A stretch of DNA of 64,000 nucleotides from Vicinamibacterales bacterium (GCA_965249205.1 CBDFLL010000005.1:1027045-1091044), one strand, 5' to 3'; shown: positions 16,267 through 34,877, numbered from the stretch's first letter. Notes: generated by a model not told the origin, from the sequence alone. Numbers and translations: made by a program.

Positions 16267-16866
16267 TCACGCGGCCTTCCGATCGAGCGTCCTGACGCGA
16301 TGACCAACCGGCGCCGCCTGCGGCATGAACTGCTGCCGGTTGAGCATGCCTGAATGCCCGCCCGTGATGTTCGTGTTCCGGTCCGCCCACGGCATCGCGC
16401 GCATCGGGCGGCCGCGCTGCGCGAGGAACCGAATCCGCGAGCCCCACCCCTTCGAGAACAGATGCTCGTGATAGTCGCGGTTGTGCTTCCCGGCGTACCA
16501 CACCGGGTCGAGCCTGCGCTGCAGCGGCGTGTCGATCGTCACGACCGACCGCACCCGCTCGGTCTTTGGGTCCGCCAGGAGATACGCGACGACGGCCCCG
16601 CCCCATGAGTGCGCCCAGATGTTCCGGTCCTCGTAGGCGAGGGCGTTGAGGTGTTCCTGCAGCTGCTTCGCGCCGAACTGCCAGGCCAGATGTCCGCTCC
16701 CGGTAAAGAAGGTGCCGGCCAGGGCCGTGCTCCAGAACCCGAACGCTGAGCCGCACCACTCGAAGTCGTGATCTCGCATGAACAGTTCGAACAGCGAGCC
16801 CTGTCGATTCCAGGCATGCTCCTGCATCCCGGCATTCGTCCCGGCCACCGGGACATACCTGGTCAC
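16267..16866 (-). CDS. Alpha/beta-hydrolase-fold esterase/lipase-like protein (part of the prophage lysis cassette)
   Basis: 199 aa with an AHSWGG nucleophile-elbow (GxSxG-like) motif. Overlaps the TIGR02594 gene stop by 4 nt. Confidence 0.5.
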   Translation of the reverse strand: MTRYVPVAGTNAGMQEHAWNRQGSLFELFMRDHDFEWCGSAFGFWSTALAGTFFTGSGHLAWQFGAKQLQEHLNALAYEDRNIWAHSWGGAVVAYLLADPKTERVRSVVTIDTPLQRRLDPVWYAGKHNRDYHEHLFSKGWGSRIRFLAQRGRPMRAMPWADRNTNITGGHSGMLNRQQFMPQAAPVGHRVRTLDRKAA

Positions 16867-17321
16867 CTGAGTCTCCGTACACCGAGGACGCGGTCGGCAT
16901 CGAACGGGGCGACCGTGACCGCGTTGCCCTGATTCCCGGCCAGCACGAGCACCGTGCGCGTCGGCGCGTCGTAGCCAGCAAACACGCCGACATGGCCGGG
17001 TGCACCAGACGTGACCTCGGGTCCAGGCTGGTTGCCACCACCGCGCTTGAGAATCACCACATCATTTTGCGGGCGCGCCTCGGTAAGGGTCACGGGACGC
17101 CCGACGGTGAGCCACGACCGCGCGGCCGCGGACTTCGAACGCGGGAGCCGGAGGAGCCAGGCCATCCGATTCACGAAGGCGCTGCACCAGGGAGTCTCGT
17201 CTGGCGTGTCGGACCCATACCCGCAGCACTCGAAACACCACTGAATAAATGGGGCATGCTGGTCGCCGCGCAGTTCCTGCACTTCCCCGACGAACCGCTG
17301 CGCCTGATCGAACAATGTCAT
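16863..17321 (-). CDS. TIGR02594-family phage-associated cell-wall peptidase (CHAP/NlpC-like endolysin candidate)
   Basis: PWCSAFVNRMAWLL...VVILKRGGG...GHVGVFAGYD...VLAGNQGNAVTVAPF...VLGVRRL matches the conserved pattern of the TIGR02594 family, which is commonly encoded beside phage holins and tail genes. Confidence 0.55.
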   Translation of the reverse strand: MTLFDQAQRFVGEVQELRGDQHAPFIQWCFECCGYGSDTPDETPWCSAFVNRMAWLLRLPRSKSAAARSWLTVGRPVTLTEARPQNDVVILKRGGGNQPGPEVTSGAPGHVGVFAGYDAPTRTVLVLAGNQGNAVTVAPFDADRVLGVRRLR

Positions 17322-17334
17322 ACGCCTGCCCTCC

Positions 17335-17700
17335 TTACCCAGTGGTCCTGAAGACCTTCCCTCGCACCTCTTTCACGCTTTCGGCGAGCGCCTCGACGTG
17401 TGCGACCAGACCGGCCACGTCGACCTGGACCTTGCTGATTTTGCTGTGCAACTCGTTGTCGGTCGCGCGCCGTGACGTCTGCTCGGCCTGGATCCGCTTG
17501 TCGGCGTTGTGCAGGCCATCAGCCAGTTCCTTGTACTTGTCGGCCAGCGCCTTGAACTTTTCGGCCGTGCGGCTGTCCTGGTCCTGGCGCTGCTGCGCGA
17601 ACTTCCCCTTCGCGAACACGTAGGTCACGATCGCCGACACGAGGAAGCCGAGCGCGTAGAGCAATCGGAGCCATTGATCGAGCGCCTCCGGATCCGGCAC
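17335..17700 (-). CDS. Membrane protein with C-terminal coiled coil (holin/spanin-like lysis accessory)
   Basis: N-terminal TM helix (LLYALGFLVSAIVTYVFA) then a charged coiled-coil. Lies between the endolysin candidate and the tail fibre genes. Confidence 0.35.
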   Translation of the reverse strand: MPDPEALDQWLRLLYALGFLVSAIVTYVFAKGKFAQQRQDQDSRTAEKFKALADKYKELADGLHNADKRIQAEQTSRRATDNELHSKISKVQVDVAGLVAHVEALAESVKEVRGKVFRTTG

Positions 17701-17830
17701 TACCGTTGCGCCTCAATGAACATGACGATGAGGGGCATTGCCACCCATGCTGCGACTAAGACCTTGACCGGCCACGACGTCTCCGCGTGGGCCCACTTCG
17801 CCACCGCGACCAGCGCCGAGAACCGAGCCC

Positions 17831-18031
17831 TCACGCCAGAATCTCCGCGATGCGGGCGTCGGCCGTGGCGTTGTCCGGCCAGATCGCCGGCGCCGTGTAG
17901 ACCGTGGCCGAGAGCTGCGCCAAGGTCTGCACGCTGTGGGTCACGAACCGCGTGACGCTGACGAGCATCATCCCGACCGCGAACACGATCGACAGCAGCG
18001 TCAGCACGTTCACCGTGGTGTACTCAAACAT
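17831..18031 (-). CDS. Small membrane protein (holin-like)
   Basis: 66 aa with one strong TM helix (VLTLLSIVFAVGMMLVSV). Position fits a lysis cassette. Confidence 0.3.
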   Translation of the reverse strand: MFEYTTVNVLTLLSIVFAVGMMLVSVTRFVTHSVQTLAQLSATVYTAPAIWPDNATADARIAEILA

Positions 18032-18148
18032 CGGGATCCGCTACCCGTCGTGTCATCGCGTGCCTCTCTCTTGCTGTTCGCGCCAGGTCGCCATCGTCAT
18101 GCGGCCTGCATCTTGATCACGCCGTCCGATCCGGTGGACGGCCCGTCG

Positions 18149-18913
18149 TTACGGTCGCCGCCCATCGCCACCGTTGCCGGTGTGTGCCGCCGTCGTGCCG
18201 TGGGCGCCAGCATCGCCGCCGGCCGCGAACGTGCCGCCGAAGATCGCACTGGGTTTCCCAACGCCACCCGCGCCGCCGGCTGATCCGTTCGCGCCGGCGC
18301 CGCCCGCGCCGCCGCCGCCGCCGCCCAGCTGACTCTCGTCTCCGCTTTCCGCCGTGCCGCCGGTATTTCCCCACGGGTCGCCGGTAGCGGTCGTCCCGGT
18401 GCCGCCGTTCCCGCCGACATCACCCGCCCCCCCACCGCCGCCACTGGCATCCGTCACCGACCCGCCACCCGGATTGGTAGCGCTTGCAGAGATATTCGGA
18501 CTGTCGGCGGCGCCACCACCGCCACCGCCGTTGCACGAGATCGAGATATTCGGGTACTCGGTGACACCGCCGGCCACCCCGCGGTCGCTGCCGACGCCGC
18601 CGGCGCCGATCTCGACCACGTTGGTCGGACCGCCCACCTGCACACCAGACGCCTCGGAGAACCCGCCGGCGCCGCCACCGCCACCGCCCATGTCGGTTGA
18701 GCTGAGGCCATCGCCGCCGTACCCGCCGCCGCCACCGGCCCCGACAAGGAGCACGTCCACGCGCCCGATCCGTGACCACGCGAAGTTATAGGTCCCCGCT
18801 GTCGTCAGCGTCAGGACGCCATCGGTGTCGAAGTTGTGGGTCCCGCTCGCCGCCCCGCTGTACGTCAGGACTAGCGGACCACCGAGCGCCCGCCGCTGGT
18901 GTCTCACGCTCAC
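18149..18913 (-). CDS. Glycine-rich phage tail fibre-like protein (probable GTG start ~18913)
   Basis: Long poly-Gly/Ala/Ser tracts (GGGGGYGGDGLSS, GGGGGAGGFSEASG, GGGGAGDVGGNGGTGTT) following a beta-rich N-terminal domain, typical of phage receptor-binding fibres. Confidence 0.45.
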   Translation of the reverse strand: MSVRHQRRALGGPLVLTYSGAASGTHNFDTDGVLTLTTAGTYNFAWSRIGRVDVLLVGAGGGGGYGGDGLSSTDMGGGGGGAGGFSEASGVQVGGPTNVVEIGAGGVGSDRGVAGGVTEYPNISISCNGGGGGGAADSPNISASATNPGGGSVTDASGGGGGAGDVGGNGGTGTTATGDPWGNTGGTAESGDESQLGGGGGGAGGAGANGSAGGAGGVGKPSAIFGGTFAAGGDAGAHGTTAAHTGNGGDGRRP

Positions 18914-19326
18914 GAGAACGCCTGCCCCATGACGGACGCATACCAGGTTGTCCCGGCGTCGGGCGTCCAGAACGTGATCCAGTCGTCTTCGCCGTTCGTC
19001 TCCGTCAGCGTTGGTGCCGTCCCGAAGGGCCACCGCACGGACGCCGGCCAGGCGATCGTGCGCGCCGTCCCATCCCCCCGGAACCGCACCGTGCAGTACC
19101 CCAGGCGTGTTGACCCTGGGGCGTTGCTGATCGTCAGTGTCGTGATGTTGGCGTTCAGCGACACCAGGAACACCCGCGCCGCCGAGAGATCCAGCGTCAG
19201 CGTGCCGGCGCTGATCGTGGGGGCGCTGTGCGTTTCGTCGGTCCCCTCCTGGAATTGCGTCTCGAGGTGGTCGAGCCTGTCAGCCAAAATCGTGTCGCCG
19301 GTCGACCAGTCGTACCGCGTGTACAT
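18910..19326 (-). CDS. Phage tail-associated hypothetical protein
   Basis: 138-aa ORF, beta-rich composition, in the tail-fibre region. Translationally coupled to its neighbours. Confidence 0.35.
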   Translation of the reverse strand: MYTRYDWSTGDTILADRLDHLETQFQEGTDETHSAPTISAGTLTLDLSAARVFLVSLNANITTLTISNAPGSTRLGYCTVRFRGDGTARTIAWPASVRWPFGTAPTLTETNGEDDWITFWTPDAGTTWYASVMGQAFS

Positions 19327-19857
19327 TCAGACCTCCTCGGCCAGGCCACTACTCCACGACAGTGTCCACCCGAAGGTGACCGCGATCGAGATCGTCTTCA
19401 CGATCGGACTCATCAACACGACCCGCGCGTACAGCGTGCCCAGACTCGCGGCATTCAACAGGCCCACCTCCGCCAGCGTGTTCCCATTTGCGTCGTTCGG
19501 GCCCAGGAAATAGCGATAGAGAATCCGTCCGGTCGCCGGCGTGGTCTGCGTGAACACGTCCCGGAACACTTCCGCTCCGAGCGCCGTATCGCCGTGCGTC
19601 GGCGCCGCGAGCCCCGTGCCGACCGCCACGTGCGACAACGCGTCCCCGGACCCAGACAACCGATCGCGGATGAGGTTCAGGCCGGCCGTCGTCACCAGGT
19701 TGTGCCGCCGGTCCCACACCGTCCAGTGGCCGTGCACCAGGTCGTGCACAATGACCTCGACGTTGCACGTCGCCATCGCCGGTGCCGCCATGATCACGTT
19801 CCGGCTCTGCTCGGCGGCCCGGATGAGGCCCAGATCCCGGCCCTCCAGTCGCATCAC
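19327..19857 (-). CDS. Phage tail-associated hypothetical protein
   Basis: 176 aa. Start overlaps the stop of the upstream tail protein (19854-19857). No family recognised. Confidence 0.35.
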   Translation of the reverse strand: MMRLEGRDLGLIRAAEQSRNVIMAAPAMATCNVEVIVHDLVHGHWTVWDRRHNLVTTAGLNLIRDRLSGSGDALSHVAVGTGLAAPTHGDTALGAEVFRDVFTQTTPATGRILYRYFLGPNDANGNTLAEVGLLNAASLGTLYARVVLMSPIVKTISIAVTFGWTLSWSSGLAEEV

Positions 19858-21275
19858 CCCGCCACGCTGAAGCCGGCCAGCGCATAGCCGGCGCGCGTCT
19901 CCGGCACGGCGGACACGGCCGTCAGACGCGCCGCGGCGGTGACCTCGTCCGCCAGACTCCGCAGGATCACCACGATCTCATCGTCGTGGAGGACAAACTG
20001 CCGGCCCGCCTGGGCGAGCCGCCGGAAGTACGCCTGCCACCCGCCGTACGGGTCGCCCGCGATGGCGTTCACCGTGTACCAGATCTCGTCCAGCTCCTCG
20101 TTCACCGCGGCCGACAGGGAGTCGATCAGGTACAGCTCGCCGGTGATGCCATGCGCCGGGAATGTCGCCGCCACCAGTTGCCCGGCGGCGAAGCCCGGGA
20201 TGCGCGTCCGGCACGTCAGCACTCGAGCAATGGATCCGTAGCGCGTCAGCAGCGCGTGGGCGACCTCCGTCGCCATGGCCGCGGAGTCGATGCTCGGGCG
20301 GTTCTCCACCCGCGCGTAGATACCGCTGCCGCCTTCGATCGCCTGCCTGGCCGTCACCTCGGTCTCGAAGCGTGAATCCACGATGATTTGGAACATGCCC
20401 TGGTAGGTCACCTCCACCACGTCGCTCGCGGAGAGCACGCCGCCGACCGTGTCCTGAGAGATTTCCGTCGTCCCCTTGGACCAGTACCAGTCCTTGCCCG
20501 TGTCCACGCCGCGGATGCCTACCGTCTTGCTGACGCTGTTGACCTCCACCGTGGGCACCTTGCCGACCTTGAAACTGGTGGTGAACGTGCGGCGCTTGCT
20601 GTCTCCGACGAACGACTCCGTCCGCGCGTCGGTCAGGTCGGTGCCGCCCCGCACGATCTGGCGATTCCGGTACTGCTCCCGGTTCGGTCGCACCCGTACC
20701 GTCCCGAGCAGGGCCGTGGAGCCATCGAGCGGCGCCGGGGCCGCGATCGACGTCCGTTCGCGGACGTGCAGCACCTTGGAGGCATCGACCCACCACGCCA
20801 TCCCGGCGAGCTCGCTCAGCTCGTTGAACGCCTGCGAGGCCGGCACCCAGTTGAAGACCGCCTTGTCAATCGTGGGGCCCGTCTCCACGCCGCGCGTGTC
20901 GAGTCCTTCGCCCGCCAAGTCTTGCGCCACGATGTCGAGCACGATCGCCTTGAGCGTCTGGTGCTCGTACACCCGTGCCACCAAATGCCGGTCCGCGATC
21001 GCCGAGAAGTCCACGGCCGATGTGTCAAACCTCAGGACCCCGGTGCCGGGTTCTTCGTATTCCTCCGGCTCGACGAGCATGCCGCCGAAGCGCCGCGTGC
21101 CGTCTTCCAGCACGATAACCTCTTGCCCGTCCTCCGGTCGGAACCCGCCGACCCGGTCGAACAGCCGCACGCGCAGCGTGTTGCGGCCGTTCAGCAGGTC
21201 CTCGTAGCTCAACTCGCCCGTGCGGTCCCACGCGGCCGTGCGGTCGACACCGGTCACCGTGATCGTGACCGCCAT
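19854..21275 (-). CDS. Phage tail protein (distal tail/baseplate-like), immediately downstream of the tape measure gene
   Basis: 473 aa. Positioned after the tape measure gene as Dit/minor-tail proteins are in siphoviruses. Start codon overlaps the tape measure stop. Confidence 0.5.
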   Translation of the reverse strand: MAVTITVTGVDRTAAWDRTGELSYEDLLNGRNTLRVRLFDRVGGFRPEDGQEVIVLEDGTRRFGGMLVEPEEYEEPGTGVLRFDTSAVDFSAIADRHLVARVYEHQTLKAIVLDIVAQDLAGEGLDTRGVETGPTIDKAVFNWVPASQAFNELSELAGMAWWVDASKVLHVRERTSIAAPAPLDGSTALLGTVRVRPNREQYRNRQIVRGGTDLTDARTESFVGDSKRRTFTTSFKVGKVPTVEVNSVSKTVGIRGVDTGKDWYWSKGTTEISQDTVGGVLSASDVVEVTYQGMFQIIVDSRFETEVTARQAIEGGSGIYARVENRPSIDSAAMATEVAHALLTRYGSIARVLTCRTRIPGFAAGQLVAATFPAHGITGELYLIDSLSAAVNEELDEIWYTVNAIAGDPYGGWQAYFRRLAQAGRQFVLHDDEIVVILRSLADEVTAAARLTAVSAVPETRAGYALAGFSVAG

Positions 21276-24200
21276 CAGGCCACCCCGTGCACCGCCAGCA
21301 CGCCGGGAATCCGGCGCACGACCGCCTCTGCGGCCCGCCGACCGTCAATGTGGGTGTGCAGGTGGACGACGATGGGCGCCCCCAGACCCGCCGCGCCGGC
21401 CATCCCTGCCCCGGCCGTCTCCATGTGCCTGGACGCCACCGCGAACTGCGCCCGCGCGTTCTCGAGCTGGGCGCCCACCATCGTGGCCACGCCTTGGCCC
21501 TGCTGGCGGGTCAGCACCTCTTCCTCGCCGTGGAGCCACGCGGGCGTCCCGAACGGACTGAACTGCCGGAGGCCGCCCGTCCCGTCCGCGAACTGGTGCC
21601 CGCCCAGGGCCTCGTCGGCCCGATGCGCGTCGCCCGGGTTCCGCGCCAGCCAGTTCGCCTCCCACGCCTCCCGCGTGCGGAAATTCGACGGGGACAACCG
21701 GTCGTTGCCCTCCCGGCCCGGATCGATCATGCCCGTCAGCACCGGCGTGACCGGGATCACGATCGGCGTCGCCATCTCGTCCTTCATGGCGCCAATCGCG
21801 AGCGCCATCTGCCCAAAGTCCCAGACGCCCGTCTCGCTGGCGTCTCGGATGAGGCCCTGCATCTGCACCACCGCCGGATGCGTGCTGCCCAGCGAGTCGG
21901 TCAGCGACTCGGCCTCGCGCAGAATGGTGCCCAGGTCGTAGGTGCTCCCGTCACTGGCCTTCCGAAATTCCGCAGCCATCCGATCGAGGGAGTCCGTGTT
22001 CGCGATCTTGGCCTGCATGATGTCGATCGTCCCCGTCAGCTCCTCGAACGTCCCGCGTCCCGTCTCGGCCAGCGCGTCGAGGCCCGGCACCGTCTCCTTC
22101 TTGATGGTGGTCGTGATCTCGTCAATGACCTCCTGGACCGCCGCGCCGCCCTGCTGCTCCGCCTGCCAGAGCCGGTTGACGACGTCGAGGGCGTCATCCG
22201 CGCTCGCGCCGGCGGCGATGTACGCATCGCGGATGGCAATCACCGTCGCCGCCCCGATCTCGTTGCCCTTCCACGCGCCCTGAATCGCCTGCTGCACCTC
22301 GGCCATCTGCGCCGGGTTCAGCTCGGCGAGGAGACCCTGGCGGAAGCGGCCAGCCACCTGTCGGCCTGCCAGCTCGGCGGCAGACGGGCCACCGAGACTG
22401 AAGAGCTTGCCGACAAGCTGACCGATGACCGGTCCAATCAGCGGGATCGCCATCCCGGCCGCGTCGCCGAGCACCTTGCCGAGGCCTTTGCTGAGGAACC
22501 CCGTGTCCGCGGTCATCCTCGTGCTCAATCCCTCGGACAAGGACGTCCCGAGCCGGTCGCCCGCCTGCACGCCGAGCGACTGGGTCGCCCCGAGGAACCC
22601 GCCGCCGCCTTCCAGCGCCCGCGCGAACGTCTGGCCGATCTGCTTCCCGAAGCCCGCGAACGACTCGCCCATGCCGGACAGAAACCCGTCGGCCGCCGCG
22701 GTCCCAGCCTCGGTCCCAGCCGTGGTCGCCGCGGCTGGCAGATCCTGCAGCGTGCCGATGAACCCCCTCAGCGCGTTCTGCGAGTTCGACGTGCCGCCGG
22801 TGAAACGGTCGAAGCTCGTGTCGAGGGCGTCGACGGCCATCGCCGCTTCGATGCCGAGTTGCGGGAGGGGCTGCAGCGTGCCGATGAACCCCATCAGCGC
22901 GTTCCGCGAGTTCGACGTGCCGCCGGTGAAACGGTCGACGCTCGTGTCGAGGGCGTCGACGGCGGCGGTCGAGCCTTCCACCGAGGCAGCGAAGTCGTCA
23001 TTCGTTTTGGTGGCCCGCATCGAGGCCACCGCGGCGTCCCAGATGGCTTTCTGCGAGGCCTCGATGGCCGCCTTGATGGCCGCCGTCTCCTCTCGGATGG
23101 CTGTGACTTGCTCCTCCCGGTCGGCGAGGAGTTGCCGGTTCTCTGCGATCTCTCGCTGTTTGGCGCGGACCACGTTGTCGTAGTTGCGGGAGAGTGTGGG
23201 GAGCGCCTCGATCTCGGCCTCGAGGCGGGCGATCTCGGCCGGCGCGTTGCGGACGGCAGCCGCGGCGGCGGCGTTCGCGGCGGTGAGCGCGGCCTCCTCG
23301 TCGCGCAGCGCGGCGGTGAGGTGCTGCTTCATCCTCGTGGCGCGAGCACCCGTGTTGCTGATATTCGCGATGCGCTCGCTGAGGCCGGCGATCCGCGCTT
23401 CGACGCTGGCGACCTCATTCCGCGCTGTGGCCCACTGGAACACCTTCCAGGCGGCCCACATCCCGGCGATCGCGATGCCGACGGGGCCGGCGGCCAGGGT
23501 GAGGGCGCGGAGGCTGCCGCCGAGCAGGCCGACGCCCGCGGCGGCGGCGGGGGCCGCGGTGCCCGCCGCCGCCATGGCCGTGGTCGTGCCCGCCAGCGCA
23601 CCGCTCAGCGTCCCGAGCGAGGTCACCGTCAGCCCGGCCAGGCTGATCAGCGTCCCGAGCCCGATCAGGACCGGTGCGGTGGCCGCCATGAGCACGCCCA
23701 CCGCCAACGCCGTGGCACGCACCGGTTGCGGGAGGTCGGCGAACCAGTGCGCGGCTCGAGCCAGCTGGTCCACCAGCGGGCCTGACGCGGTCAGGAGCTG
23801 GTTGAGGCTGGGCAGCAACGACGTCCCCACCGTGATCGCGACATCCCTGAGTCGGCCCCACAGGATCTTGGCTTGGGACTCGAACGTCGCGTACCGCTGC
23901 GCAGCCTCCGTCGCGAGCGCCGTGTTGTCTTCGAACGCCTGTGTGCCGATCTGGAGGGACTGTGTGAGGACCTCGCCAGCGCCCCCGAGCGACAGAAACG
24001 ACTTGATCAACCGCTGGTCGGTGAAGTTGAGGGCCTCAAGCGTGGCGGTCGCCGTGATGCCCTGCTCGCCGATCCCGGCCGTGAACGCGGCAAAGGCGGC
24101 GCCGGCGTCCTGCTCGAACGCTGACGCGAACTCGCGGGCGGACAGACCGGCGGTGCTCGCAAAGACGTGCAGCTTATCGCCACCACGTGAGACGGCTTCG

Positions 24201-24913: not shown

Positions 24914-24926
24914 CTCGTCGTCGCGT

Positions 24927-25774: not shown

Positions 25775-25808
25775 TCGACGCCCCCCGTGTGCCGTCCGTG
25801 CCACTGCC

Positions 25809-26267: not shown

Positions 26268-26294
26268 GACTACGTTCTCCTTGTGAACCGTTCC

Positions 26295-26708
26295 CTACGT
26301 GTCGCTCAGCTCGAGGTTCCGTATCTGCAACGCGGCGTAGGCCGCCAGCGCCATCCCGCGCGCCGCCGCGTGCGTCTTCGCGCGGGCCGTAATCTGCGCG
26401 CCCGGGTGCTGATAGCCCGGCGCCGGCGCCGCGTTGTGCGTGCGATCCGGGGCCGTCCCGCCGGTCTCGATCACCTGCAGGTACGGCCCGTCTCCATCCG
26501 GCACCCTCGCCTGCGTCGACGCGAAGAGGGAGGTCCCGAACGTCCCGACGCCCTGGGTCGCCAGCCGCGTCACGATCTCCTGGATGAAGGTCGTCGACGG
26601 CCGCTTGACCGCGAGGATGTTGAACTTGAACATCAGTCGCCCATTGCCATCGAGGCCCGCATCAAACGGCTCCTGCCCGACGTCGATGTCCCGGTACCAC
26701 GCCATCAC
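26295..26708 (-). CDS. Phage tail terminator / tail completion-like protein
   Basis: 137 aa, between the HK97 gp10-like adaptor and the major tail protein. Confidence 0.35.
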   Translation of the reverse strand: MMAWYRDIDVGQEPFDAGLDGNGRLMFKFNILAVKRPSTTFIQEIVTRLATQGVGTFGTSLFASTQARVPDGDGPYLQVIETGGTAPDRTHNAAPAPGYQHPGAQITARAKTHAAARGMALAAYAALQIRNLELSDT

Positions 26709-27058
26709 CCCGTCAGCGGGTTCAGGTCGATCCGTCTCACGATCCGGGTCGCCAGATGCGGCGCCGACTCGAAGATCACCGCCTCGATGAACTTCGCCTG
26801 CCCCGTGGGGTGCTGCGCCTCCAGGTCTTCATGGACCGCCACCGCGTACGGCGCCGCCGGCCCGCCCGCGACGATCGCCGTCACGATGCGCCGGCCGCGC
26901 CGGTGCGGCCCTTCGACGTGAATCGAGCCGCGTAGGTTGCCGGTGTCCACCGGCGTCAGGCGCTTCGCTTCCGTGGCCTCGATCTCCGTTTCCTGCGCCA
27001 GGGCCAGCGCCACCGCATCCGGGATCTCCGCCGCCAGCCGATCCAGCGTGCGTCGCAT
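26705..27058 (-). CDS. Phage head-tail adaptor, HK97 gp10 family
   Basis: MRRTLDRLAAEIPDAVALALAQETEIEATEAKRLTPVDTGNLRGSIHVEGPH... carries the conserved TGNLRxSI motif of HK97 gp10-family proteins. The longer listed ORF (to 27376) is an Arg-rich out-of-frame extension. Confidence 0.6.
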   Translation of the reverse strand: MRRTLDRLAAEIPDAVALALAQETEIEATEAKRLTPVDTGNLRGSIHVEGPHRRGRRIVTAIVAGGPAAPYAVAVHEDLEAQHPTGQAKFIEAVIFESAPHLATRIVRRIDLNPLTG

Positions 27059-27089
27059 CGCGCCCACGCCCTGCACTCGCGGCATCGCG

Positions 27090-28295
27090 CTACCCGGCCA
27101 CCGCCGCCACCCGCGTCCGCTCCCCCAGCTGGACCGCCTGCGGATAGAGCGCGGTCTCCAGCGCCTCTGTGAACGCCGCCCCGATCGCCGGCCACCGGTA
27201 CTGCGGCCGTGACACCAGCGCCCGCCCACGCCCCGCGTAGTCCGCGCGCAGCGCCCGGTCCCGATAGAGCCGGTCGAGCGCCGCGATCGTGGCCTGCCGA
27301 TCGGGAATCCCTCCGATGACGTTGATCTGGTGCGGCGTGCACGACGTCGTCGAGCACGGCACCGTGATCGCCGCATCCTCGGGCCATTCGCTCAGCGCCG
27401 CCCACTTCGGCACGACGCATGGAATCCCACAGGCCATCGCCTCCATCGTCGGGAGCGACCACCCCTCGTTCTGCGACGTCGAGAGCAACACGTCGAACAC
27501 GGGGTAGGTCGCCGCCATCGCCGCCTCGGTCGCGCCGTTCCGGTTCGTCAACCGCGGTTCGATGAGCCGATTCGCAATGCCGTAGTACTGCGCGAGCTGG
27601 CTCAGCGTGTACGCCTCGTCCCCGGTGGGCGCCGAATGCACGTAGAGCGCCGCATCCGTGATCCCGCGCGACTTGACCCACTCGGCGAAGTACTGCACCA
27701 GCAGGTCGAACCGCTTCCGCGTCTGATTCCGGTTCACCGTGCCGACAATGAACGTGTCCCGCGGCAGCCCACGATGCGTGAATACGCGATCGAGCCCCAG
27801 GCGCGCCCGCGCCGCCTCGCGGTCCCCCGGCTGGTACACGTCGACGTCGACGCCCAGCGGCACGACGGCCGCCGGCCCGGCGTACCCGCCCTGCCGCGCC
27901 TCGTGCAAGCCGAATTGCGTCCAGAACACCGCGAGCGCCAGCCCGGACAGCCATTCCGCGCCCCGGCAGTTCTTCCCGTCCACGGCCAGGAACGCCACGA
28001 CGGGCGTGTCCCCCGCCCGCTGCCGGTACGCCGGCACGTTCCACGGGTCGTTCAGGAGGCACACGCAATCCGGGCCCAGCCGCTCGACCAGTTCGGCCGT
28101 ACGGCCCACGCCCAAGCTGTCACCCCCGGAGGCCGCCGGGTAGATGGGGTACGGGTAATCGTGCGGGTCGCCGCGATAGTTGATGCCGAGCACATGCACG
28201 TCCCACGTGCGCGCCAGCACGTCGAGGACGCCATGCGTCACGCGCGCGAAGCCCGAATGCACCCCCGCGTCCCCAATCCAGAGCAATCGCCTCAT
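27090..28295 (-). CDS. Glycosyltransferase, GT-B fold (family 4-like), within the phage morphogenesis operon
   Basis: MRRLLWIGDAGVHSGFARVTHGVLDVL... N-terminal Rossmann half plus a C-terminal half with ...QNEGWSLPTMEAMACGIPCVV (the EX7E-type GT4 donor-binding motif). Start overlaps the stop of the upstream GT-A gene. Confidence 0.7.
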   Translation of the reverse strand: MRRLLWIGDAGVHSGFARVTHGVLDVLARTWDVHVLGINYRGDPHDYPYPIYPAASGGDSLGVGRTAELVERLGPDCVCLLNDPWNVPAYRQRAGDTPVVAFLAVDGKNCRGAEWLSGLALAVFWTQFGLHEARQGGYAGPAAVVPLGVDVDVYQPGDREAARARLGLDRVFTHRGLPRDTFIVGTVNRNQTRKRFDLLVQYFAEWVKSRGITDAALYVHSAPTGDEAYTLSQLAQYYGIANRLIEPRLTNRNGATEAAMAATYPVFDVLLSTSQNEGWSLPTMEAMACGIPCVVPKWAALSEWPEDAAITVPCSTTSCTPHQINVIGGIPDRQATIAALDRLYRDRALRADYAGRGRALVSRPQYRWPAIGAAFTEALETALYPQAVQLGERTRVAAVAG

Positions 28296-29113
28296 GCCCT
28301 CACCACCTCGGCGACCCGGTTCACATACGACCAGTCGCGGCCTGGCCACGAGTCGAACGTGTGCGTCACCGCACGCGGCTGAATCACACTCGACCGTCCG
28401 GTGTGCTGCACGAAACTCGGCGCCGACGCCAGAAAGAACCGCAGCGTCGGGTAGCGCGCCGCCGACCACCGGTGTATCGCGAGGTCATAGCAGGCATCAC
28501 GCCCAACACCGTCGTCCCCGAGATAGCGCGGGTGGTCGAACAGCCACTCCGCCAGCGACCGTGCATCCGCATGCCTGACGGCGAATGCCTGCGTCCCATA
28601 GAACGCCGACACCGGGTAATCCCATGACGTCCCGCCGCGCGTCACCACGTCCAGGATCTGCTGGTAGGCCGCGCCGAACGCATACACGCGCCGGTCGTCG
28701 CGCGCATGCGCATCGAGCCACGCCCCGACGCTGTCAAGAAACCATCCGCACACGTCGATGTCATCCTCGAGGAACAGCACCCACCGGGCATCCGTCCCGG
28801 CCCCGACTAGCAACGCCGTGGCCACGTTCTCGTTCGGCGTGCGCCGCTGCCCGTCTCCCGGGCGATGCACCGTGATCACGCTCTCGTCACTGGGCTGCCG
28901 CCACACGTGATGACGCCCATCCCGATACGGGTGCAACACGATCGCCGCATCCGGCCACGCCTCAGATCCCCCTGAATCCACGATGTGCAGCCCGTGCAGG
29001 CGCGGTGACGCGAGCACGCCCGCCCGCGCCAGATTGTCCAGCGTGGCCTCCAGATAGTTCTGTGCCTTCGGCTGCCGGTCTACGGTCACTACAACGACGG
29101 CGATGTCCCTCAT
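28292..29113 (-). CDS. Glycosyltransferase-like protein, GT-A fold candidate (start at MRDIAVVVVTVDRQP)
   Basis: IAVVVVTVDR...NYLEATLDNL...HIVDSGG resembles the N-terminal nucleotide-sugar-binding segment of GT-A (family 2/25-like) enzymes. About 273 aa. Confidence 0.45.
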   Translation of the reverse strand: MRDIAVVVVTVDRQPKAQNYLEATLDNLARAGVLASPRLHGLHIVDSGGSEAWPDAAIVLHPYRDGRHHVWRQPSDESVITVHRPGDGQRRTPNENVATALLVGAGTDARWVLFLEDDIDVCGWFLDSVGAWLDAHARDDRRVYAFGAAYQQILDVVTRGGTSWDYPVSAFYGTQAFAVRHADARSLAEWLFDHPRYLGDDGVGRDACYDLAIHRWSAARYPTLRFFLASAPSFVQHTGRSSVIQPRAVTHTFDSWPGRDWSYVNRVAEVVRA

Positions 29114-29229
29114 GTCGCGGCCTCCCCGCAGCGGTGGACACTCGCGGTCCCCTCGTCCTTGGTCGCTCATTCGATCACGAGCGACCCCTCCGGTGGCGCT
29201 GCGACAGGTCGCCGGGATTCGCGGTGCCG

Positions 29230-29808
29230 TCATCGCCAGAACACCTGCACGTTCTGCCCGTACCACCACGCGTGCGGAGCGGCATTCAACCACCGCCGTG
29301 CCACGATGCGCGACGTCATTTCGTCCCACCGATACCCACGCGCCGCGAGTTTGCTGCGCCAGTACGTGTGCGGCTGCTCGTTCAGGTGCCCCGCGCCGCC
29401 TTGCCCCGGCACTGCCGCCGTGAACAGGAGCTTGCCACCTGCTTTCGTCAGCCGCGCCAGCGTGTCGCAGAGCGTCTCCGCCGCCGCAGCGGGTAGGTGC
29501 TCGGCCACTTCCCAGCACAGCACCATCTCGGCCGGCTCAAGGCTTTCGCCCCATGGCTTCGTGAGGTCTCCCTGCAACAGGACGCCGTGCGAGGGCACGC
29601 TCGGCGCCGGCAACGCCACATCCACCCCAAACGCGAGGACCCCCGCGGCGGCGGACATCCGCACCAGGTGTCCGTCGCCGCAGCCCACATCGATCAACGA
29701 CTCCGGGTAGCCGAACTGCTCGAACACCAACGCCAGGCAGCGGCCACTCTCCCGCTCCGTTCGGGCGGCCTGCCGGTACGCGAGTCGCTGCAAGGGCGTC
29801 GTCATGCG
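29230..29808 (-). CDS. Class I SAM-dependent methyltransferase (start at MTTPLQRLAY)
   Basis: LIDVGCGDGHLVRMSAAAGVLAFGVDVA (motif I GxGxG), ...MVLCWEVAEHLP..., ...AGGKLLFTA. About 193 aa. Confidence 0.7.
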   Translation of the reverse strand, partial: RMTTPLQRLAYRQAARTERESGRCLALVFEQFGYPESLIDVGCGDGHLVRMSAAAGVLAFGVDVALPAPSVPSHGVLLQGDLTKPWGESLEPAEMVLCWEVAEHLPAAAAETLCDTLARLTKAGGKLLFTAAVPGQGGAGHLNEQPHTYWRSKLAARGYRWDEMTSRIVARRWLNAAPHAWWYGQNVQVFWR

Positions 29809-30453
29809 GCTGTTTCCAACCCGAACACGTCGTGCAGTTCCGGTGACGTCGTTGACACCATCCGCCGATGCCGCGCACGCAACGCCGCCAAACAGGCGCG
29901 GTCGCCTGGCACGTGCGGACGCGACGCCGTATCCCATGACAGCCCGGCATGGCCGCCCTTGAGCGAGATCCCCGCGAGCACCACTGCCGCCGCACCACCG
30001 GCGAACGCCAAGCACGCCGCAAACACCCCGGTCGACACCCGCTGGTCCCTCGGTCCGGCGCCCAGCGCCTCTCCGCACGCGGCCTGCACGATGGCATTCC
30101 GGTCGGCCGTCGACACCCCGATCAGCGTGTCGTAGTCCACCTCGACGTCCGCCAGCGTCGCGCGCACCCGCTCGAGCGGGCCATCCGTCAGATCCGCCCA
30201 GACCTGCCGCACGCGCAACCCGTGCCACCGGTCGATCGTCTCGCGCTGCTGCCGAGAGCGTCGCCCGCAGAAATGCGCGGTCGTCGCCAGCACATCCACC
30301 TGCTGCCCGCCGTCCCGCGCCACGTAGGCGCCGCCGTTGGCCGCGATGATCACGGCACTCGGCCGCACCACGACCGAGGGGGCCGATCCCACCACGGAGA
30401 CGACCTTCCCCCCGAACACCCGGAGGCCATGCGTCGCGACCTCGGTCAACATC
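29802..30453 (-). CDS. Hypothetical Rossmann-like protein (possible nucleotide-sugar-dependent transferase); overlaps the methyltransferase start by 7 nt
   Basis: MMLTEVATHGLRVFGGKVVSVVGSAPSVVVRPSAVIIAANGGAYVARDGG... is a GxGxS-type beta-alpha-beta N-terminus. No confident family assignment. Confidence 0.3.
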
Positions 30454-30787
30454 ATTGGAAATACACCGTCTCGTGATGGGGGCCGTTCTCGTCGGACGCC
30501 TCCTTCACGGCAATCGGGAGCGGCTGCGTCGGCACGAAACGCGCCGGCAGCGTGAACCGGTCCTTGACCGTCACGCCGAACGCGCCCGCCAACGTCACCT
30601 GCACCGTGCTCACCGTCTCGTGCCCCTGCTGATCGCGCACCGTCATGACCTTGCCGCTCACGCGCGCCGCCCGTGCCGCGCCCGCGGCATACGTCGGGTT
30701 GCCGAAGCCGTCCACGCTCACACACGACTCCACCGTCACGGTGTCGGTAAAGAGGTCCGCCAGGTCGTCAACAATCGGATCCGCCAT
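30452..30787 (-). CDS. Phage head-tail connector/head closure-like protein
   Basis: 111 aa, between the capsid-proximal genes and the tail-proximal adaptor. Translationally coupled. Confidence 0.35.
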   Translation of the reverse strand: MADPIVDDLADLFTDTVTVESCVSVDGFGNPTYAAGAARAARVSGKVMTVRDQQGHETVSTVQVTLAGAFGVTVKDRFTLPARFVPTQPLPIAVKEASDENGPHHETVYFQ

Positions 30788-30791
30788 CCGC

Positions 30792-31153
30792 CTACACCAC
30801 CCGGAACACCGCTGCTCGTGGGCCCGCCTTCAAGAGCATCTCGGCCCCGCGCGTCCGCAATCCCTTCAGATGCGCCCGATAGGCCGAGTCTGGCGAATCG
30901 CCCCACGCCAGCCGCAGGTCCTCGACCTGCTTGCTCACCAGGCCCTTCTTCTGCGCCAGGAGCACCTCACGCACCGCGCCGCCGCGAGGTACTTGACGTG
31001 GTCCCCCGCGCCGGCGCGGGTCCGTTCTTCCGCAATGACGGCGACGATCTCCTCGTCCTGCAAGGCGGCCTTCGTGACGTCGCGGTCCCCAATGAAGAAC
31101 CGCACCCAATCCCGCTCCGACGCCAGCGACGCGTCGTAGGTCGCCGCCATCAA
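30792..31153 (-). pseudogene. Phage head-tail adaptor-like protein carrying a +1 frameshift (~30975-30990)
   Basis: N-terminal frame MMAATYDASLASERDWVRFFIGDRDVTKAALQDEEIVAVIAEERTRAGAGDHVKYLAAAR. It continues only in another frame as VREVLLAQKKGLVSKQVEDLRLAWGDSPDSAYRAHLKGLRTRGAEMLLKAGPRAAVFRVV. The shift lies in a gcggcggcgcgg tract. Confidence 0.4.
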
Positions 31154-31156
31154 CGC

Positions 31157-31321
31157 CTACACCGACTTCTTCGGCGCTCTCGCCTTCACCGGCTCGACCC
31201 GGTCGCCGAGCGCCTCGGCGTCCTTTGGTGTCAGGTCGACTTCCACGCCGGGGACGCATCGGACGGTCTGACCGTCGACGCGCCACCCGAACTTCCCTTT
31301 CACCACGCGATACGTCGGCAT
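31157..31321 (-). CDS. Small hypothetical protein (54 aa)
   Basis: MPTYRVVKGKFGWRVDGQTVRCVPGVEVDLTPKDAEALGDRVEPVKARAPKKSV has good composition. Sits between the capsid and adaptor genes. Confidence 0.3.
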   Translation of the reverse strand: MPTYRVVKGKFGWRVDGQTVRCVPGVEVDLTPKDAEALGDRVEPVKARAPKKSV

Positions 31322-31355
31322 GTGTCCCCGTGCCCTCTCTGGCCCGCGTGACCGC

Positions 31356-32645
31356 CTAGACCGTCGTGTGGCCAACGCAGATGCCCGACTTCCCGTCGTA
31401 GTCGTCGCGCACGCGCGGCACGATGATCGCCATGACCATCCAGAACAGGACGAAGCCGTCCGTCGACGTCCACGGCACGACCACGGGCCGCTGCCCGTCG
31501 ATAATGTCGATGACATCCGACGTCATCTGCACCATCGCGGTCCGGTTGGTCGGGAGCAGGTCCGCCGTCTTGACCATCAGGGTCCGGCCGCCCACCTGAA
31601 TCTCCTGGAGCCGCTGGAGGATGGTCTTGTCCGAGTGCGCCTTGAAGTCCTCGTTCAACTTGTTGCCGTACGAGGTCGGCACGTAGAGGTGGTAGGGCCC
31701 GTACCGCTTGTCCGCCTGCAACGTATCGATCATGCCCTGCACGTCGCCCAGGATGTCCTCGCCGTCATGCCCCGCCGCATCCCACGCCTCGTTCGAGCTA
31801 TAGGCGTACGCATTCACGTTCGGCGCATTCAGGAGTCCCGGCGTGCTACTGCCAGCCACCGTCACCGCAGCCCCGTTGATCACCGAGTCCTCGATCGCTT
31901 CATTGACCCGCCGCGTCGCCTGCTCGACGAGCGCCGTGTCGATCGGCGTGCCGTTCCGTTCCGACGCGGACAGCAGTCTCCGGTTGACGCTGAAATCCTC
32001 CGTCGTCAGATAGATCGGGATCTTCCGGACATCGCGGCCCTGCAACTGGTTCTCCCCGCGCGCCCGTGGCAGCATCGTGCGCTGCGCCCCGCCGGCTTCC
32101 GACACGACCTCCCACTGGAGCTCCATGACGCTCATCGGATTCGCCAAGGGGAACGTCAGCCCGGCCGCCATCACGTCGGCGGCGATGGTCAGCCGGTCCA
32201 GCCCAACGCGGACCACCGCCTGGTCAACGAGCTTCTGCGCATCCTCTTCGAGCGGCGAGTTCGCCCGCATCTCGGCGACACTCAACCCGCTGGTCAACAG
32301 CGCGCGCATATGCGCTGGCGCCCGGTCGGCCAGGTATCGAGTGGCGGCCGGCGTGAGGCCCGGCACCGCAACCAGGAGCCCCATGTCTGCCTCACCGCAC
32401 AGCACCATGGCGCCCATCGCGGCCGCGGCCAGCGCCGGCCCGCGCCACCGATGACCACACGCACGCTGTAGGCCCGCCCTCATTCGCGCGACCGCGTCAC
32501 GGAGGGCCATCGCCCCTCTTGTCACCGCGTTGGCCAACGTCCCGCGCCAGGCCTGGACGTTGACCAGCTTCGTTGGCATCGCGGCGACCGCGATCAGCAT
32601 CGCCACCACACACGGCAGCACGGTACAGGTGCGTTCTCTCGTCAT
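31356..32645 (-). CDS. Phage major capsid protein, HK97-fold, encapsulin/Linocin-M18-like family (true start probably internal)
   Basis: The segment IPIYLTTEDFSVNRRLLSASERNGTPIDTALVEQATRRVNEAIEDSVINGAA parallels the encapsulin region PFTLSRRELDDVERGAKDLDLDAVEEAARKLAAAEDRAIFHG. Located between the protease/scaffold-decoration genes and the head-tail connectors. Confidence 0.6.
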   Translation of the reverse strand: MTRERTCTVLPCVVAMLIAVAAMPTKLVNVQAWRGTLANAVTRGAMALRDAVARMRAGLQRACGHRWRGPALAAAAMGAMVLCGEADMGLLVAVPGLTPAATRYLADRAPAHMRALLTSGLSVAEMRANSPLEEDAQKLVDQAVVRVGLDRLTIAADVMAAGLTFPLANPMSVMELQWEVVSEAGGAQRTMLPRARGENQLQGRDVRKIPIYLTTEDFSVNRRLLSASERNGTPIDTALVEQATRRVNEAIEDSVINGAAVTVAGSSTPGLLNAPNVNAYAYSSNEAWDAAGHDGEDILGDVQGMIDTLQADKRYGPYHLYVPTSYGNKLNEDFKAHSDKTILQRLQEIQVGGRTLMVKTADLLPTNRTAMVQMTSDVIDIIDGQRPVVVPWTSTDGFVLFWMVMAIIVPRVRDDYDGKSGICVGHTTV

Positions 32646-32682
32646 GATTCGGTTCTCCTCAACCTCTGTCCGTTGGCGTGGC

Positions 32683-33114
32683 CTAGACCACTTCGACGCG
32701 CATCCGCGCGTCTCCCGGGCCGGCCGAGTTGTCCTTCGCCTCGATCGCCTTGGCGACGATCGTGCCCGTGCTGTGCGCGATCAGCCGGCCCGCCCCGTCA
32801 TGCTCAAGCGCGGCACCGTCCGCGAGGTTCTGCCCCGAGGGCACAAACGCCAAGAACGTCGTGCCCGGCACGCCGACACCGGCCTTGACGAGATCGCCGT
32901 CCGCATACGCGTCGTCGAGGCCCTTGTTCATCTCGGACTGGTCGAGCGCGATCGTCGAGCCCGCCACGCCGGCCGAGGCGTGTTTGATGTATTTCCCGGC
33001 ACTCCGATCGAGGAAGTGCCCGGGCGTGATCGCCCCGCTGGCGTGCAGGTCGTTGACCTCCGTGACCGGCCCGCCCAGGTGAATCGTGCGCGGATGGAAT
33101 TTCGTGATTGCCAT
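32683..33114 (-). CDS. Phage head decoration-like protein (DUF2190-like)
   Basis: 143 aa, Gly/Ala-rich beta protein immediately upstream of the major capsid gene. Confidence 0.35.
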   Translation of the reverse strand: MAITKFHPRTIHLGGPVTEVNDLHASGAITPGHFLDRSAGKYIKHASAGVAGSTIALDQSEMNKGLDDAYADGDLVKAGVGVPGTTFLAFVPSGQNLADGAALEHDGAGRLIAHSTGTIVAKAIEAKDNSAGPGDARMRVEVV

Positions 33115-33170
33115 GCTCTCGTCTCCTTCGCTGCCGTACGGTTCGCGCGGCCGGTGAGTGGGTCGGCCTC

Positions 33171-34877
33171 CTACGCCGTCCGCTGCTCGAGCGCCGCCTG
33201 GTACGGGTCCGGCGGCGTCGCGTACACGTCATCCTCCGCCGCGGCGCTCCGCGGCACGCCTCGCCCGCTGAAGTTCGGCTGGACCACCTCGGCCTTGGCG
33301 ACCCGCGCCATCCGCTCCAGGTCGTCGACGTCCATTTCGGTCAGCTCCGCTTCGCTGTACTCCGTCTGCGCCGTCTTGAGCACCGATACCAGCGCCGTCT
33401 TCCGCTCGGCACGCTGCGCCTTGTCCCGCGCCACCAGATCCTTGATGGACTTCGGGGCCGTCTTCAGGTACTCCTCCTCGGACTGCTCACTCGACGCCGC
33501 CGGACTCGGCTGTGCGCCCTGCGCCGGGGCGGCCGGTGGATCCGCCACCTTCTTATCTGCCGCCTCGAGCGCCGTCAGCTGCTCGTCTGTCAACGACTCC
33601 AGGAACGCCTGATGCTCCGCCGAAAACGTGACTGCCGCCTCGAGCGTCGTCAGCTGCTCGTCCGTCAACGACTCCAGGAACGCCTGATGCTCCGCCGAAA
33701 ACGTGTGCTGCTTGCTCGCGATGAGCGCCGAAATGCGCTGCGACTTCTCCATGACTGCTCCTCCTGCCGTTCGTTGTGTGTTGCCGCCACAGCCGCAGGC
33801 GGCCTTCGGCGCTGCTGGTGCCGCACTCACAGACACGAACGCCGTCTCTGCGCGCACCTCGGTTTTGTCGTCCTGCAGGGCCACCGTGCCCTTCGCCTTG
33901 AGACTGAACGACCGCTGGTACATCCGCAGCCCGCCGCCACCGTCCGCGAACGCGTGGTAGATGACGCGCTCGGCGTCATCGACCGCGAGGATGCCGATAA
34001 ATCCCGGCTCGGCGTCGCGCAACGCAATCTCCAAGGCCCCGCGCAGGTCCGTGTCCGTCAGCGCTGCGCGCAACCCCAGCGAGTCCAGCCCTTCGACCGT
34101 GGCCGCGTAGGTCAGTCGGTCACTCTCCGACACCGTGCCGCGACCAAACAACGTCTTGAGACTGTGCTTCAGCGCATCGAGCGTCGACTGGTTCATTGCG
34201 TTCCCTTCTCTGGCCGCCACCCGTGGTGCCCCGCACCCCATTTCAATCGAGCACGCGCCCACCTCGCCCTTCCGCAGCATCGCGAGGTGATCCGGGCCGA
34301 CGTGGCGCCACACGTAGCGATACGCCTGGCCGTCGTGCTCTCCTTCGTGTTCCTCGAGATCGAGCAACACGCCCACGGAGACTTCCACTTGTTCGTCGTC
34401 GAGGAGCCGCTCGACGAGCTCTTTCGCGTCGCCGCCCAACTCCTTGGCGCGCGTCTCGTCAATCCACGCTTCCACCGTCAGCCGGCGGTCATCCAGCGCG
34501 GCACTGAAGATTGAGCCCACCGAGCCTGCTTCAAGGACCGCTGGATCGTTTGCGCTGACGTGCTCGCCGTGGCGTGTGGGATGGCCGACCATGACCGGCC
34601 GACCGTTCCAGGTGCGCGGGTGATGGCCGAATTCAGAGGCGAGCGCCAGCTCGGGACCGCTCGAATTGGCCGGACGCACCACCCCCTCGACGAGGGCGAT
34701 AACCGGCACGACCAGATGCGGCGCCCCGCGGAACTCCGCCGTGCGGATCTGACCGGTCTTGCCGGCGAGATGGCGCACCGTCGGCACGGCGGCCGCCTGG
34801 CAGGCGCGCAGTTGCTGTGTCCTCACCGCTGCCCATGGTAGGGGCGCGGCCCAGACACCGCATATTTTGGTTAACAC
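33171..34877 (-). CDS. Phage prohead protease / scaffolding fusion protein with an internal 25-aa tandem repeat
   Basis: 568 aa. The N-terminal globular domain precedes the capsid gene as prohead proteases do. The C-terminal half is a highly charged alpha-helical region (EEEYLKTAPKSIKDLVARDKAQRAERKTALVSVLKTAQTEY...) typical of scaffolds. TFSAEHQAFLESLTDEQLT(T/A)LEAA is repeated twice. Confidence 0.45.
   Translation of the reverse strand: MLTKICGVWAAPLPWAAVRTQQLRACQAAAVPTVRHLAGKTGQIRTAEFRGAPHLVVPVIALVEGVVRPANSSGPELALASEFGHHPRTWNGRPVMVGHPTRHGEHVSANDPAVLEAGSVGSIFSAALDDRRLTVEAWIDETRAKELGGDAKELVERLLDDEQVEVSVGVLLDLEEHEGEHDGQAYRYVWRHVGPDHLAMLRKGEVGACSIEMGCGAPRVAAREGNAMNQSTLDALKHSLKTLFGRGTVSESDRLTYAATVEGLDSLGLRAALTDTDLRGALEIALRDAEPGFIGILAVDDAERVIYHAFADGGGGLRMYQRSFSLKAKGTVALQDDKTEVRAETAFVSVSAAPAAPKAACGCGGNTQRTAGGAVMEKSQRISALIASKQHTFSAEHQAFLESLTDEQLTTLEAAVTFSAEHQAFLESLTDEQLTALEAADKKVADPPAAPAQGAQPSPAASSEQSEEEYLKTAPKSIKDLVARDKAQRAERKTALVSVLKTAQTEYSEAELTEMDVDDLERMARVAKAEVVQPNFSGRGVPRSAAAEDDVYATPPDPYQAALEQRTA
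33557..33706 (-). repeat. Perfect-frame 75-bp tandem duplication (x2) inside the protease/scaffold gene
   Basis: ctgccgcctcgagcg(c/t)cgtcagctgctcgtc(t/c)gtcaacgactccaggaacgcctgatgctccgccgaaaacgtg occurs twice in tandem. Confidence 0.8.

Follow-up and report, generated by a model that had tools for sequence, protein, structure and literature searches.

We analysed a stretch of 64,000 nucleotides from a Vicinamibacterales bacterium (GCA_965249205.1, CBDFLL010000005.1:1027045-1091044), hereafter called the window. Positions 16001-34822 of its minus strand (18.8 kb) are very probably the late-operon remnant of a temperate siphovirus of this acidobacterium, recently inactivated, shaped by Insertion Sequences (IS) and decaying. 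The GC content of the remnant is 68.6%, against 65% for the window as a whole, and the 16-35 kb region stands out by a very high GC content at third codon positions (GC3) on the minus strand. An initial annotation had described a degraded siphovirus-like prophage with structural genes ordered from lysis to protease/scaffold, a description that matches to PHROG and Pfam families bear out. The order of the genes stands, except that a 3.4-kb modification cassette (27090-30449) had been missed; the lysis-side limit of the phage, placed at 16267, has to be moved, as homology to relatives in fact ends at ~16001. What would have been lost is everything that lies upstream in intact relatives, i.e. the portal-MuF, terminase, early, replication and lysogeny genes. 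Because portal and terminase are missing, the remnant alone is predicted to be unable to produce infectious or DNA-filled particles. About 20 of its 21 phage open reading frames (ORFs) are intact, among them a complete tail module, a lysis cassette and a programmed frameshift site, and tail-like structures made from the intact-looking tail and lysis modules are conceivable if the operon is transcribed.

The genes expected upstream were deduced from related loci. We found 618 relatives of the capsid protein in databases and retrieved 29 loci, namely an 84.7-kb metagenome contig (L001/L030) and 28 contigs from IMG/VR; capsid identity to these loci (L001-L029) is 50-69%. Relatives share the order terminase, a run of small genes, portal (often a Mu F-like fusion), protease/scaffold, decoration and capsid, followed further downstream in L001-L029 by glycosyltransferase (GT), gp10, terminator and tube. 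A portal(-MuF) gene lies directly upstream of protease/scaffold in all of the 29 related loci with enough upstream sequence. In the 64-kb window, no match was obtained by tblastn with three queries, the terminase and the portal of L001 and the portal P0127 of a sibling copy described below. Pfam scans of the remaining large ORFs of the window identified IS transposases and housekeeping genes but neither an integrase nor any further phage gene. Besides the IS transposases no recombinase was found among the window ORFs; the integrase/excision genes, repressor and paired att sites of a complete prophage are not seen in the window, where a single phage end (~16001) could be located. The earlier claim that portal, terminase and integrase are lacking is thus confirmed over the 64 kb by the tblastn and Pfam scans. 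Portal and terminase are present upstream of protease/scaffold both in the related loci and in a cultured Brevundimonas relative.

The uncultured soil phage contigs closest to the remnant (L001-L029 and L036, from IMG/VR, Logan and ENA) have the same gene order, with a GT4 gene between connector and gp10-like genes, and differ from the window by the portal(-MuF) and terminase genes that they carry upstream of protease/scaffold; L036 is 91-99% identical to the window at the nucleotide level. Members of this phage family are frequent in soil metagenomes. Among 50,697 phage records, megablast found nothing that matches positions 15000-37500, and two scans of GTDB representative genomes, one with the capsid protein and one with a 39-sequence profile, were likewise negative. 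The closest cultured phages are the Brevundimonas siphophages vB_BpoS-MaInes and vB_BpoS-StAshley, with 37% identity to the capsid protein of the window. They share the order terminase, portal, a 568-aa (amino acids) protease/scaffold-like gene, a ~145-aa gene, capsid, connectors, tape measure, fibres and lysin. Unlike the remnant, they have complete genomes of 69-70 kb, with no glycosyltransferase annotated in the stretch viewed. A Mu-like transposable phage, suggested by the MuF domain and the multiple copies, was considered and rejected: the terminase of relatives is of T4 type and their early genes include SSB/methylase, one relative contains a tyrosine-integrase fragment, and no MuA-like gene was seen.

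The genes that remain, all on the minus strand, form a siphovirus-type late operon. At its upstream end lies a prohead protease/scaffold fusion (33171-34820, ~550-568 aa; PHROG 760/530/12864, DUF2213) with an intact N-terminus; its L001 counterpart has 577 aa, of which residues 10-569 are covered by the alignment. The fusion gene is followed by that of a head decoration protein (32683-33114, 143 aa; PHROG 766, E = 8e-10; 58% identical to its L001 homologue) and by that of the major capsid protein (31356-32384, ~342 aa; DUF6260, Linocin_M18 and Major_capside), whose longest ORF reaches 32645. An AlphaFold2 (AF2) model of the capsid protein built with 39 homologues (pLDDT 80.7) finds the capsid of phage Sf11 (E = 1.3e-19) and encapsulins as best Foldseek matches, with TM scores of 0.7-0.76; as modelled, the protein has the HK97 fold. 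Downstream of the capsid gene come a 54-aa ORF, a conserved gene of 116-120 aa (30792-31150), treated below, and a head-tail connector (30452-30787, 111 aa; PHROG 3881, E = 1.4e-7; 51% identical to its L001 homologue). The scaffold part of the protease gene contains an in-frame tandem duplication (33532-33681) of 75-bp units that are 81% identical.

The tail module begins beyond the modification cassette with an HK97-gp10-like/Neck1 tail completion protein (26705-27058; PHROG 5, and the L001 HK97-gp10_like gene by tblastn), a tail terminator (26295-26708; PF12691) and a tail tube (25809-26267; tblastn to an L001 gene annotated Phage_TTP_12). Tail assembly chaperone G (25259-25774; PHROG 344) has a -1 frame extension T running to 24927 (PHROG 337/39). 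The canonical slippery sequence A_AAA_AAC is found at 25319-25313, and a 12-bp hairpin (25308-25279) lies 4 nt further downstream. After this chaperone pair comes a tape measure protein of 1212 aa (21275-24913; PHROG 13339, E = 1.7e-109, plus 16 other tape-measure families). No sheath-like family appeared in any ORF scan of the window. The next gene (19854-21275, 473 aa) was called distal tail by the initial annotation; the distal tail protein (Dit) label has to be replaced. The protein itself has no family match, and 11 of its 39 homologues match Pfam YQBQ-like and 3 match Phage_GPD; we call it hub-like since these are YqbQ-like and gpD hub families. Its single-sequence AF2 model (pLDDT 30.6) is unusable, and no useful match to PDB sequences was obtained for the hub, the protease or the capsid protein. 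The distal part of the tail is encoded by a 176-aa distal tail/fibre protein (19327-19857; PHROG 5417/4176 matches within the fibre block), a 138-aa fibre (18910-19326; PHROG 9017 tail fibre, E = 1e-19) and a 294-aa glycine-rich distal tail/fibre protein (18149-19033; Gly_rich_2). An in-frame tandem duplication is also present in the tape measure gene (22745-22963), where 93 bp are repeated at 126-bp spacing with 97% identity.

Beyond the protease gene, where the portal gene should end, lies a non-coding spacer of 269 bp (34823-35091; stops in all frames, GC 59.5%) without a match to P0127. It is followed by two head-to-tail copies of an IS1595-family element, 1048 bp each (35092-36139 and 36144-37191, plus strand), with the left inverted repeat toward the phage; the tandem pair had already been noted at 35087-37197. 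The copies are separated by the 4-bp spacer GCGA (period 1052 bp) and show 2 differences. Their transposase matches DDE_Tnp_IS1595 (PF12762, E = 1e-28) and a Zn ribbon (PF12760, E = 1.5e-13), which places it in the IS1595 family, and the terminal inverted repeats of ~25-27 bp are perfect. Past the pair, the unrelated AT-rich DNA reported before is a 778-bp fragment (37192-37969, plus strand) with 51% GC, compared with 65% for the window; an ORF starting at 37445, without Pfam or PHROG family, is cut off by the next IS. This is an IS5-family element (copy B, 37974-39268, minus strand), whose flanking repeats, CTAA on the left and CTAG on the right, do not match, and host plsY comes next. In tblastx and blastn comparisons with all retrieved loci, the spacer, the low-GC fragment and a HicAB region on the other side of the phage yielded nothing beyond self-hits and noise.

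Target preferences of the IS1595 element were obtained by scanning its inverted repeat in the JGI metagenomes, where at least 120 loci (L037-L156) were found and 129 ends analysed; the repeat was not found in IMG/VR. The termini read CTY...RAG, YTAG is present at positions -8 to -5 in 84-92% of the 129 ends, and complete copies have a 4-bp direct repeat inside a YTAG-N4-CTAR target. The termini and an unusually strict target are thereby defined for an abundant IS1595-type element of soil. The target duplication listed in ISfinder for the IS1595 family is ~8 bp; it is 4 bp in the metagenome copies, and the window pair is flanked by TAGA/TCGA. A reading of the window flanks as devoid of a target duplication, and hence as a deletion, was dropped once the 129 ends showed the 4-bp duplication in YTAG-N4-CTAR, a pattern to which the window pair nearly conforms. 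The spacer of the dimer is as long as this duplication, which is reminiscent of the active dimers that other IS families form. In tandem dimers, (IS30)2 and those of IS21 for example, two copies likewise abut with a spacer of the length of the target duplication (4 bp here), the mechanism being deduced for our element from junction sequences only; we know of no dimer intermediate in the IS1595 family.

A connection between this element and the loss of phage genes comes from sibling copies of the remnant. Exact-sequence look-ups with the capsid ORF revealed two near-identical relatives, on contigs of 1,832,074 bp and 1,020,241 bp, whose phage proteins are 96-99.6% identical to their window counterparts. 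The 1,832,074-bp contig has capsid, hub (99.6%), decoration, tube and GT4 genes. Among the three phage-gene contigs compared, it is also the only one with the 769-aa portal-MuF P0127, a single-member cluster. No terminase homologue was found on the three contigs among the best 120 of 3646 matches. The 1,020,241-bp contig has decoration, capsid, GT4 and an intact 120-aa gene, and its protease/scaffold is reduced to the 91-aa ORF P0334. The first residues of this ORF, MLKQPDKHE, correspond exactly to the left inverted repeat of IS1595 in reverse complement, read outward, and protease residues 487-568 follow. The same IS1595 end, oriented as in the window, thus caps this sibling 1.4 kb further inside the phage. 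Its IS/phage junction, CGCT-GCGC, breaks the YTAG-N4 rule at every conserved position. Because the IS1595 target rule is violated, this junction would be a secondary event anchored at the IS end (adjacent deletion) and not a primary insertion. The three phage-bearing contigs (these two and the 1,599,306-bp contig of the window) probably belong to one Vicinamibacterales assembly, since identical copies of the IS transposases are found on 5-6 contigs, the 1.83-Mb one among them, and no relative of the host RNase R reaches 90% identity in the collection.

The siblings also clarify the state of the head genes. The gene at 30792-31150 belongs to a function-unknown family (PHROG 1732) and its head-tail role would follow from its position only. 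The initial annotation had considered a structural gene at 30792-31153 to be frameshifted, and two comparisons agree with this. By tblastn, the 116-aa protein of L001 aligns in two frames (aa 3-55 and 64-116, at window positions 31141-30968 and 30956-30795). The intact 120-aa sibling protein P0332 reads AAARCGEVLL where the window reads AAARC/VRCSW, one G being lost near 30960 in ...CGGTGC(G)GTGAGG.... As read from this 1-nt deletion, the locus would be without one conserved head-tail protein. The disabling appears to be recent, because neither the other ORFs nor the site of -1 frameshifting are damaged and identity between the IS copies is 99.8-100%. Phage genes of the window and of L036 show ratios of non-synonymous to synonymous substitution (dN/dS) of 0.1-0.38, which reflect past purifying selection while both were phages and do not address domestication. 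A separate observation concerns the ~300 bp between the decoration and capsid genes (32385-32682), compared with ~20 bp in relatives. The annotation includes these bases in the capsid ORF as an N-terminal extension; they are probably non-coding because 11 of the 16 differences from the sibling P0001 fall there.

Taken together, the junctions suggest that IS activity produced or shaped the truncation. Two pieces of evidence point in this direction: the IS1595 left end fused to protease codon 487 of the sibling at a non-target sequence, and the IS5 copy beside the remnant, whose unmatched duplications would be the signature of recombination between two IS copies. This last element is one of four identical 1.3-kb copies in the window, with duplications CTAG/CTAG, CTAA/CTAG, CTAG/CTAG and CTAA/CTAA; a DDE_Tnp_1 transposase, a DUF772 N-terminal domain and perfect 4-bp CTAR repeats in 3 of the 4 copies assign it to the IS5 group of the IS5 family. 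An IS-driven truncation is likely for the family of copies, to judge from these junctions, and unproven for the window copy, in which the IS1595 pair may have inserted in the ordinary way into DNA next to the already truncated phage, or may combine two events.

Several points weigh against the reading of a recent, IS-shaped inactivation. The 269-bp spacer is without identifiable origin. The lone mismatch among the IS5 duplications could be a point mutation, and the 1-nt deletion in the 116-120-aa gene an assembly error. The placement of the sibling contigs in the same genome draws on indirect evidence (shared IS transposases, RNase R), and the dN/dS values say nothing on the time elapsed since truncation. 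Moreover the window IS1595 pair sits in a canonical target: its outer flanks, CTAG-TAGA and TCGA-CTAA, are both canonical half-targets and 3 of the 4 duplicated bases match, so that the pair may be a simple insertion into a pre-existing junction and not the cause of the truncation. The same flanks, for which the probability by chance is estimated at roughly 5-8%, and the position of the break at a gene boundary fit a history in which an unrelated deletion, or recombination at a module boundary, truncated the phage before the IS1595 pair entered the neighbouring DNA by ordinary transposition. We regard this history as a serious possibility, though the less probable one. The sibling has the same IS end in the same orientation fused to phage coding sequence at a non-canonical site, which ties the IS to phage erosion. 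In the window the duplication is imperfect and the internal junction of the pair, GAC-GCGA, differs from both flanks.

The density of repeats raises another question, namely whether the prophage is truncated at all. With nine IS copies in the window, four of them the identical IS5-type element, the missing half could have been moved by an IS-mediated inversion, or the contig mis-joined across identical copies; the unmatched duplications of IS5 copy B, indicating recombination, would fit both. The lone portal of this type on the three contigs is however located on a different contig than the window, together with its own capsid, decoration, tube and hub genes, so that no portal contiguous with the cluster came to light. 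In addition, a single IS5 crossover cannot restore a whole prophage because the IS1595 pair and the unrelated gene fragment separate the phage from copy B. There is in our view only a slight chance that the window hides an untruncated prophage.

The completeness of the late genes invites comparison with particle-producing elements, and the initial annotation had mentioned a precursor of a gene transfer agent (GTA) or of a tailocin. We weighed a domesticated or helper-dependent particle module, either tailocin- or GTA-like or relying on an intact sibling for portal and terminase in trans. In the helper-dependent version, the window copy would contribute alternative tape-measure and fibre genes. 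Besides the intactness of the ORFs, this explanation draws on the two copies out of three in the collection that are truncated on the same side with the same late genes kept. It also draws on the contrast between head genes, 98-99% identical to the siblings, and the tape measure, the 138-aa fibre and a 121-aa protein, which have no relative at 90% identity. A GTA nevertheless needs portal and terminase, and neither is in the 64-kb window; a tailocin, F-type included, would have shed the head genes, which are present here as a full set (protease/scaffold, decoration, capsid, connectors). One of the conserved head-tail genes is disrupted. For the module itself neither a regulator nor a promoter came to light, consensus matches being at chance level only; the only good sigma-70-like match in 15600-35300 (15690-15662) is just upstream of hicA. 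Intact ORFs are moreover expected for a very recent event, as the near identity of the IS copies indicates. Domestication or helper dependence is hence improbable, and the other option raised initially, a simply decaying prophage, fits better: portal and terminase are missing and the full head module is kept.

A more speculative proposal is that the truncations are not independent, the IS1595-type element repeatedly eroding or mobilising one side of the prophage from a fixed end, with the tandem dimer active and the cassettes diversifying sibling particles. We consider it a long shot. If true, left-over late cassettes with divergent tape-measure and fibre genes would possibly be expressed with an intact sibling.

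The recently inactivated remnant resembles several known systems. Cryptic or defective prophages, of which the remnants of E. coli K-12 are examples, similarly consist of late phage genes lacking essential functions and flanked by IS and rearranged junctions. Compared with them, the window remnant is unusually fresh (one frameshift, other ORFs intact), and its relatives, probably of the same assembly, show nested truncation capped by IS. The likeness to IS-end-anchored adjacent deletions is that one IS end is fixed, with neighbouring DNA lost over unequal lengths in the two copies. Acidobacterial genomes rich in IS and in integrated phages have been described (PMC5900883, PMC3469429). Defective prophages, IS-rich acidobacterial genomes and IS-anchored deletions are all well known already, and the results at this locus, an ordinary dead prophage, leave current understanding unchanged. 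Its main value lies in a correct annotation as an incomplete prophage and not as a GTA or tailocin. It also provides a sequence-level example of an IS-end-anchored deletion eating into a prophage, and documents a soil phage family of Vicinamibacterales with glycosyl- and methyltransferase genes inside the virion operon.

These genes make up the modification cassette (27090-30449), which sits between the gp10-like and connector genes. It contains a GT4 glycosyltransferase (27090-28295; PHROG 2170, E = 1.9e-28; Pfam Glyco_trans_1_4 / GT4-conflict), a weak GT-like ORF (28292-29089), a S-adenosylmethionine (SAM) methyltransferase (29230-29802; PHROG 4752) and a 215-aa ORF with no assigned function (29802-30449). 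A GT homologue is found at the same place in 17 of the 29 related loci. The methyltransferase segment is absent from L036, which is otherwise a 96%-identical contig, and the L001 cassette (12209-18462) adds a DegT aminotransferase and a hexapeptide acyltransferase. Gene position and family membership suggest virion glycosylation in phages of Acidobacteriota, and it is by these two features that glycosylation is predicted for the cassette. In mycobacteriophages, siphovirus glycosyltransferases have been documented to modify virions; those of the siphoviruses Che8 and Rita are thought to act on capsid and tail proteins (Freeman et al. 2023, as cited in PMC11256854). Those phages infect another host phylum; in the window the genes sit in the head-tail part of the operon and glycosylation is predicted only. 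As a side observation, GT4 is nearly always present in this interval of the phage family. The DegT/aminotransferase gene of L001 (12209-14449) includes Hint/intein-splicing domains, i.e. an intein-interrupted sugar aminotransferase in a phage.

At the opposite end of the remnant, the lysis cassette leads up to the probable phage/host junction. Its first two genes encode small membrane proteins of 66 aa (17831-18031) and 121 aa (17335-17700; PHROG 2658 'hol-like', E = 6e-6), both with a hydrophobic N-terminal segment in their translations, which are candidate holin or lysis accessory genes. They are followed by a 152-aa CHAP/TIGR02594-type peptidoglycan hydrolase (16863-17321; TIGR02594, E = 8.6e-19; PHROG 1259 tail lysozyme region, E = 2.8e-19; a weak CHAP match) and, as last gene, by a 199-aa alpha/beta-hydrolase (16267-16866; Pfam Abhydrolase_1, E = 2.2e-9), which is also the final phage gene before host DNA in L031 and L032. 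A conserved block of 86 bp (16001-16086, minus strand) is 94% identical to four ENA metagenome relatives (L031-L034). Homology stops at ~16001 in all four, and host genes (MauE-like, serS) then follow. The lysis genes of the same relatives are 86-90% identical to the window, i.e. less conserved than the block (94%, five sequences). The block, which has no Rfam and no tRNA match, is probably a phage/host junction arm, and may be an att arm or a regulatory element. One of the four relatives, L031 (1-10600), is another eroded copy beside serS, with an integrase fragment, S24 repressor-like genes and two IS transposases, then the lysis cassette only. To judge from this locus, IS-associated decay of the phage family would recur in other genomes.

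Beyond the shared phage DNA on the lysis side are a HicB/HicA toxin-antitoxin pair (15032-15656, minus strand) and another IS5-family element (copy A, 13691-14985, minus strand) with target-site duplication CTAG/CTAG. The non-phage content of the window comprises groES/groEL, nrdR, RNase R, plsY, cinA, pgpA and an NtrC-type two-component system, together with numerous IS; no tRNA was detected by ARAGORN over the window. The NrdR sequence falls, by exact match, in a protein cluster whose named members all come from Vicinamibacterales/Acidobacteriota. Further transposases are of IS110 type (8383-9567) and IS481 type (12648-13661), within the total of nine IS copies in 64 kb. At 2220-5183, an element of 1659 bp interrupts an IS5-type copy; it encodes a DDE_Tnp_1_4 transposase of 443 aa, has terminal repeats of the CCGGGATTTCCG type and is accompanied by a duplication of 5 bp, GTAAT.

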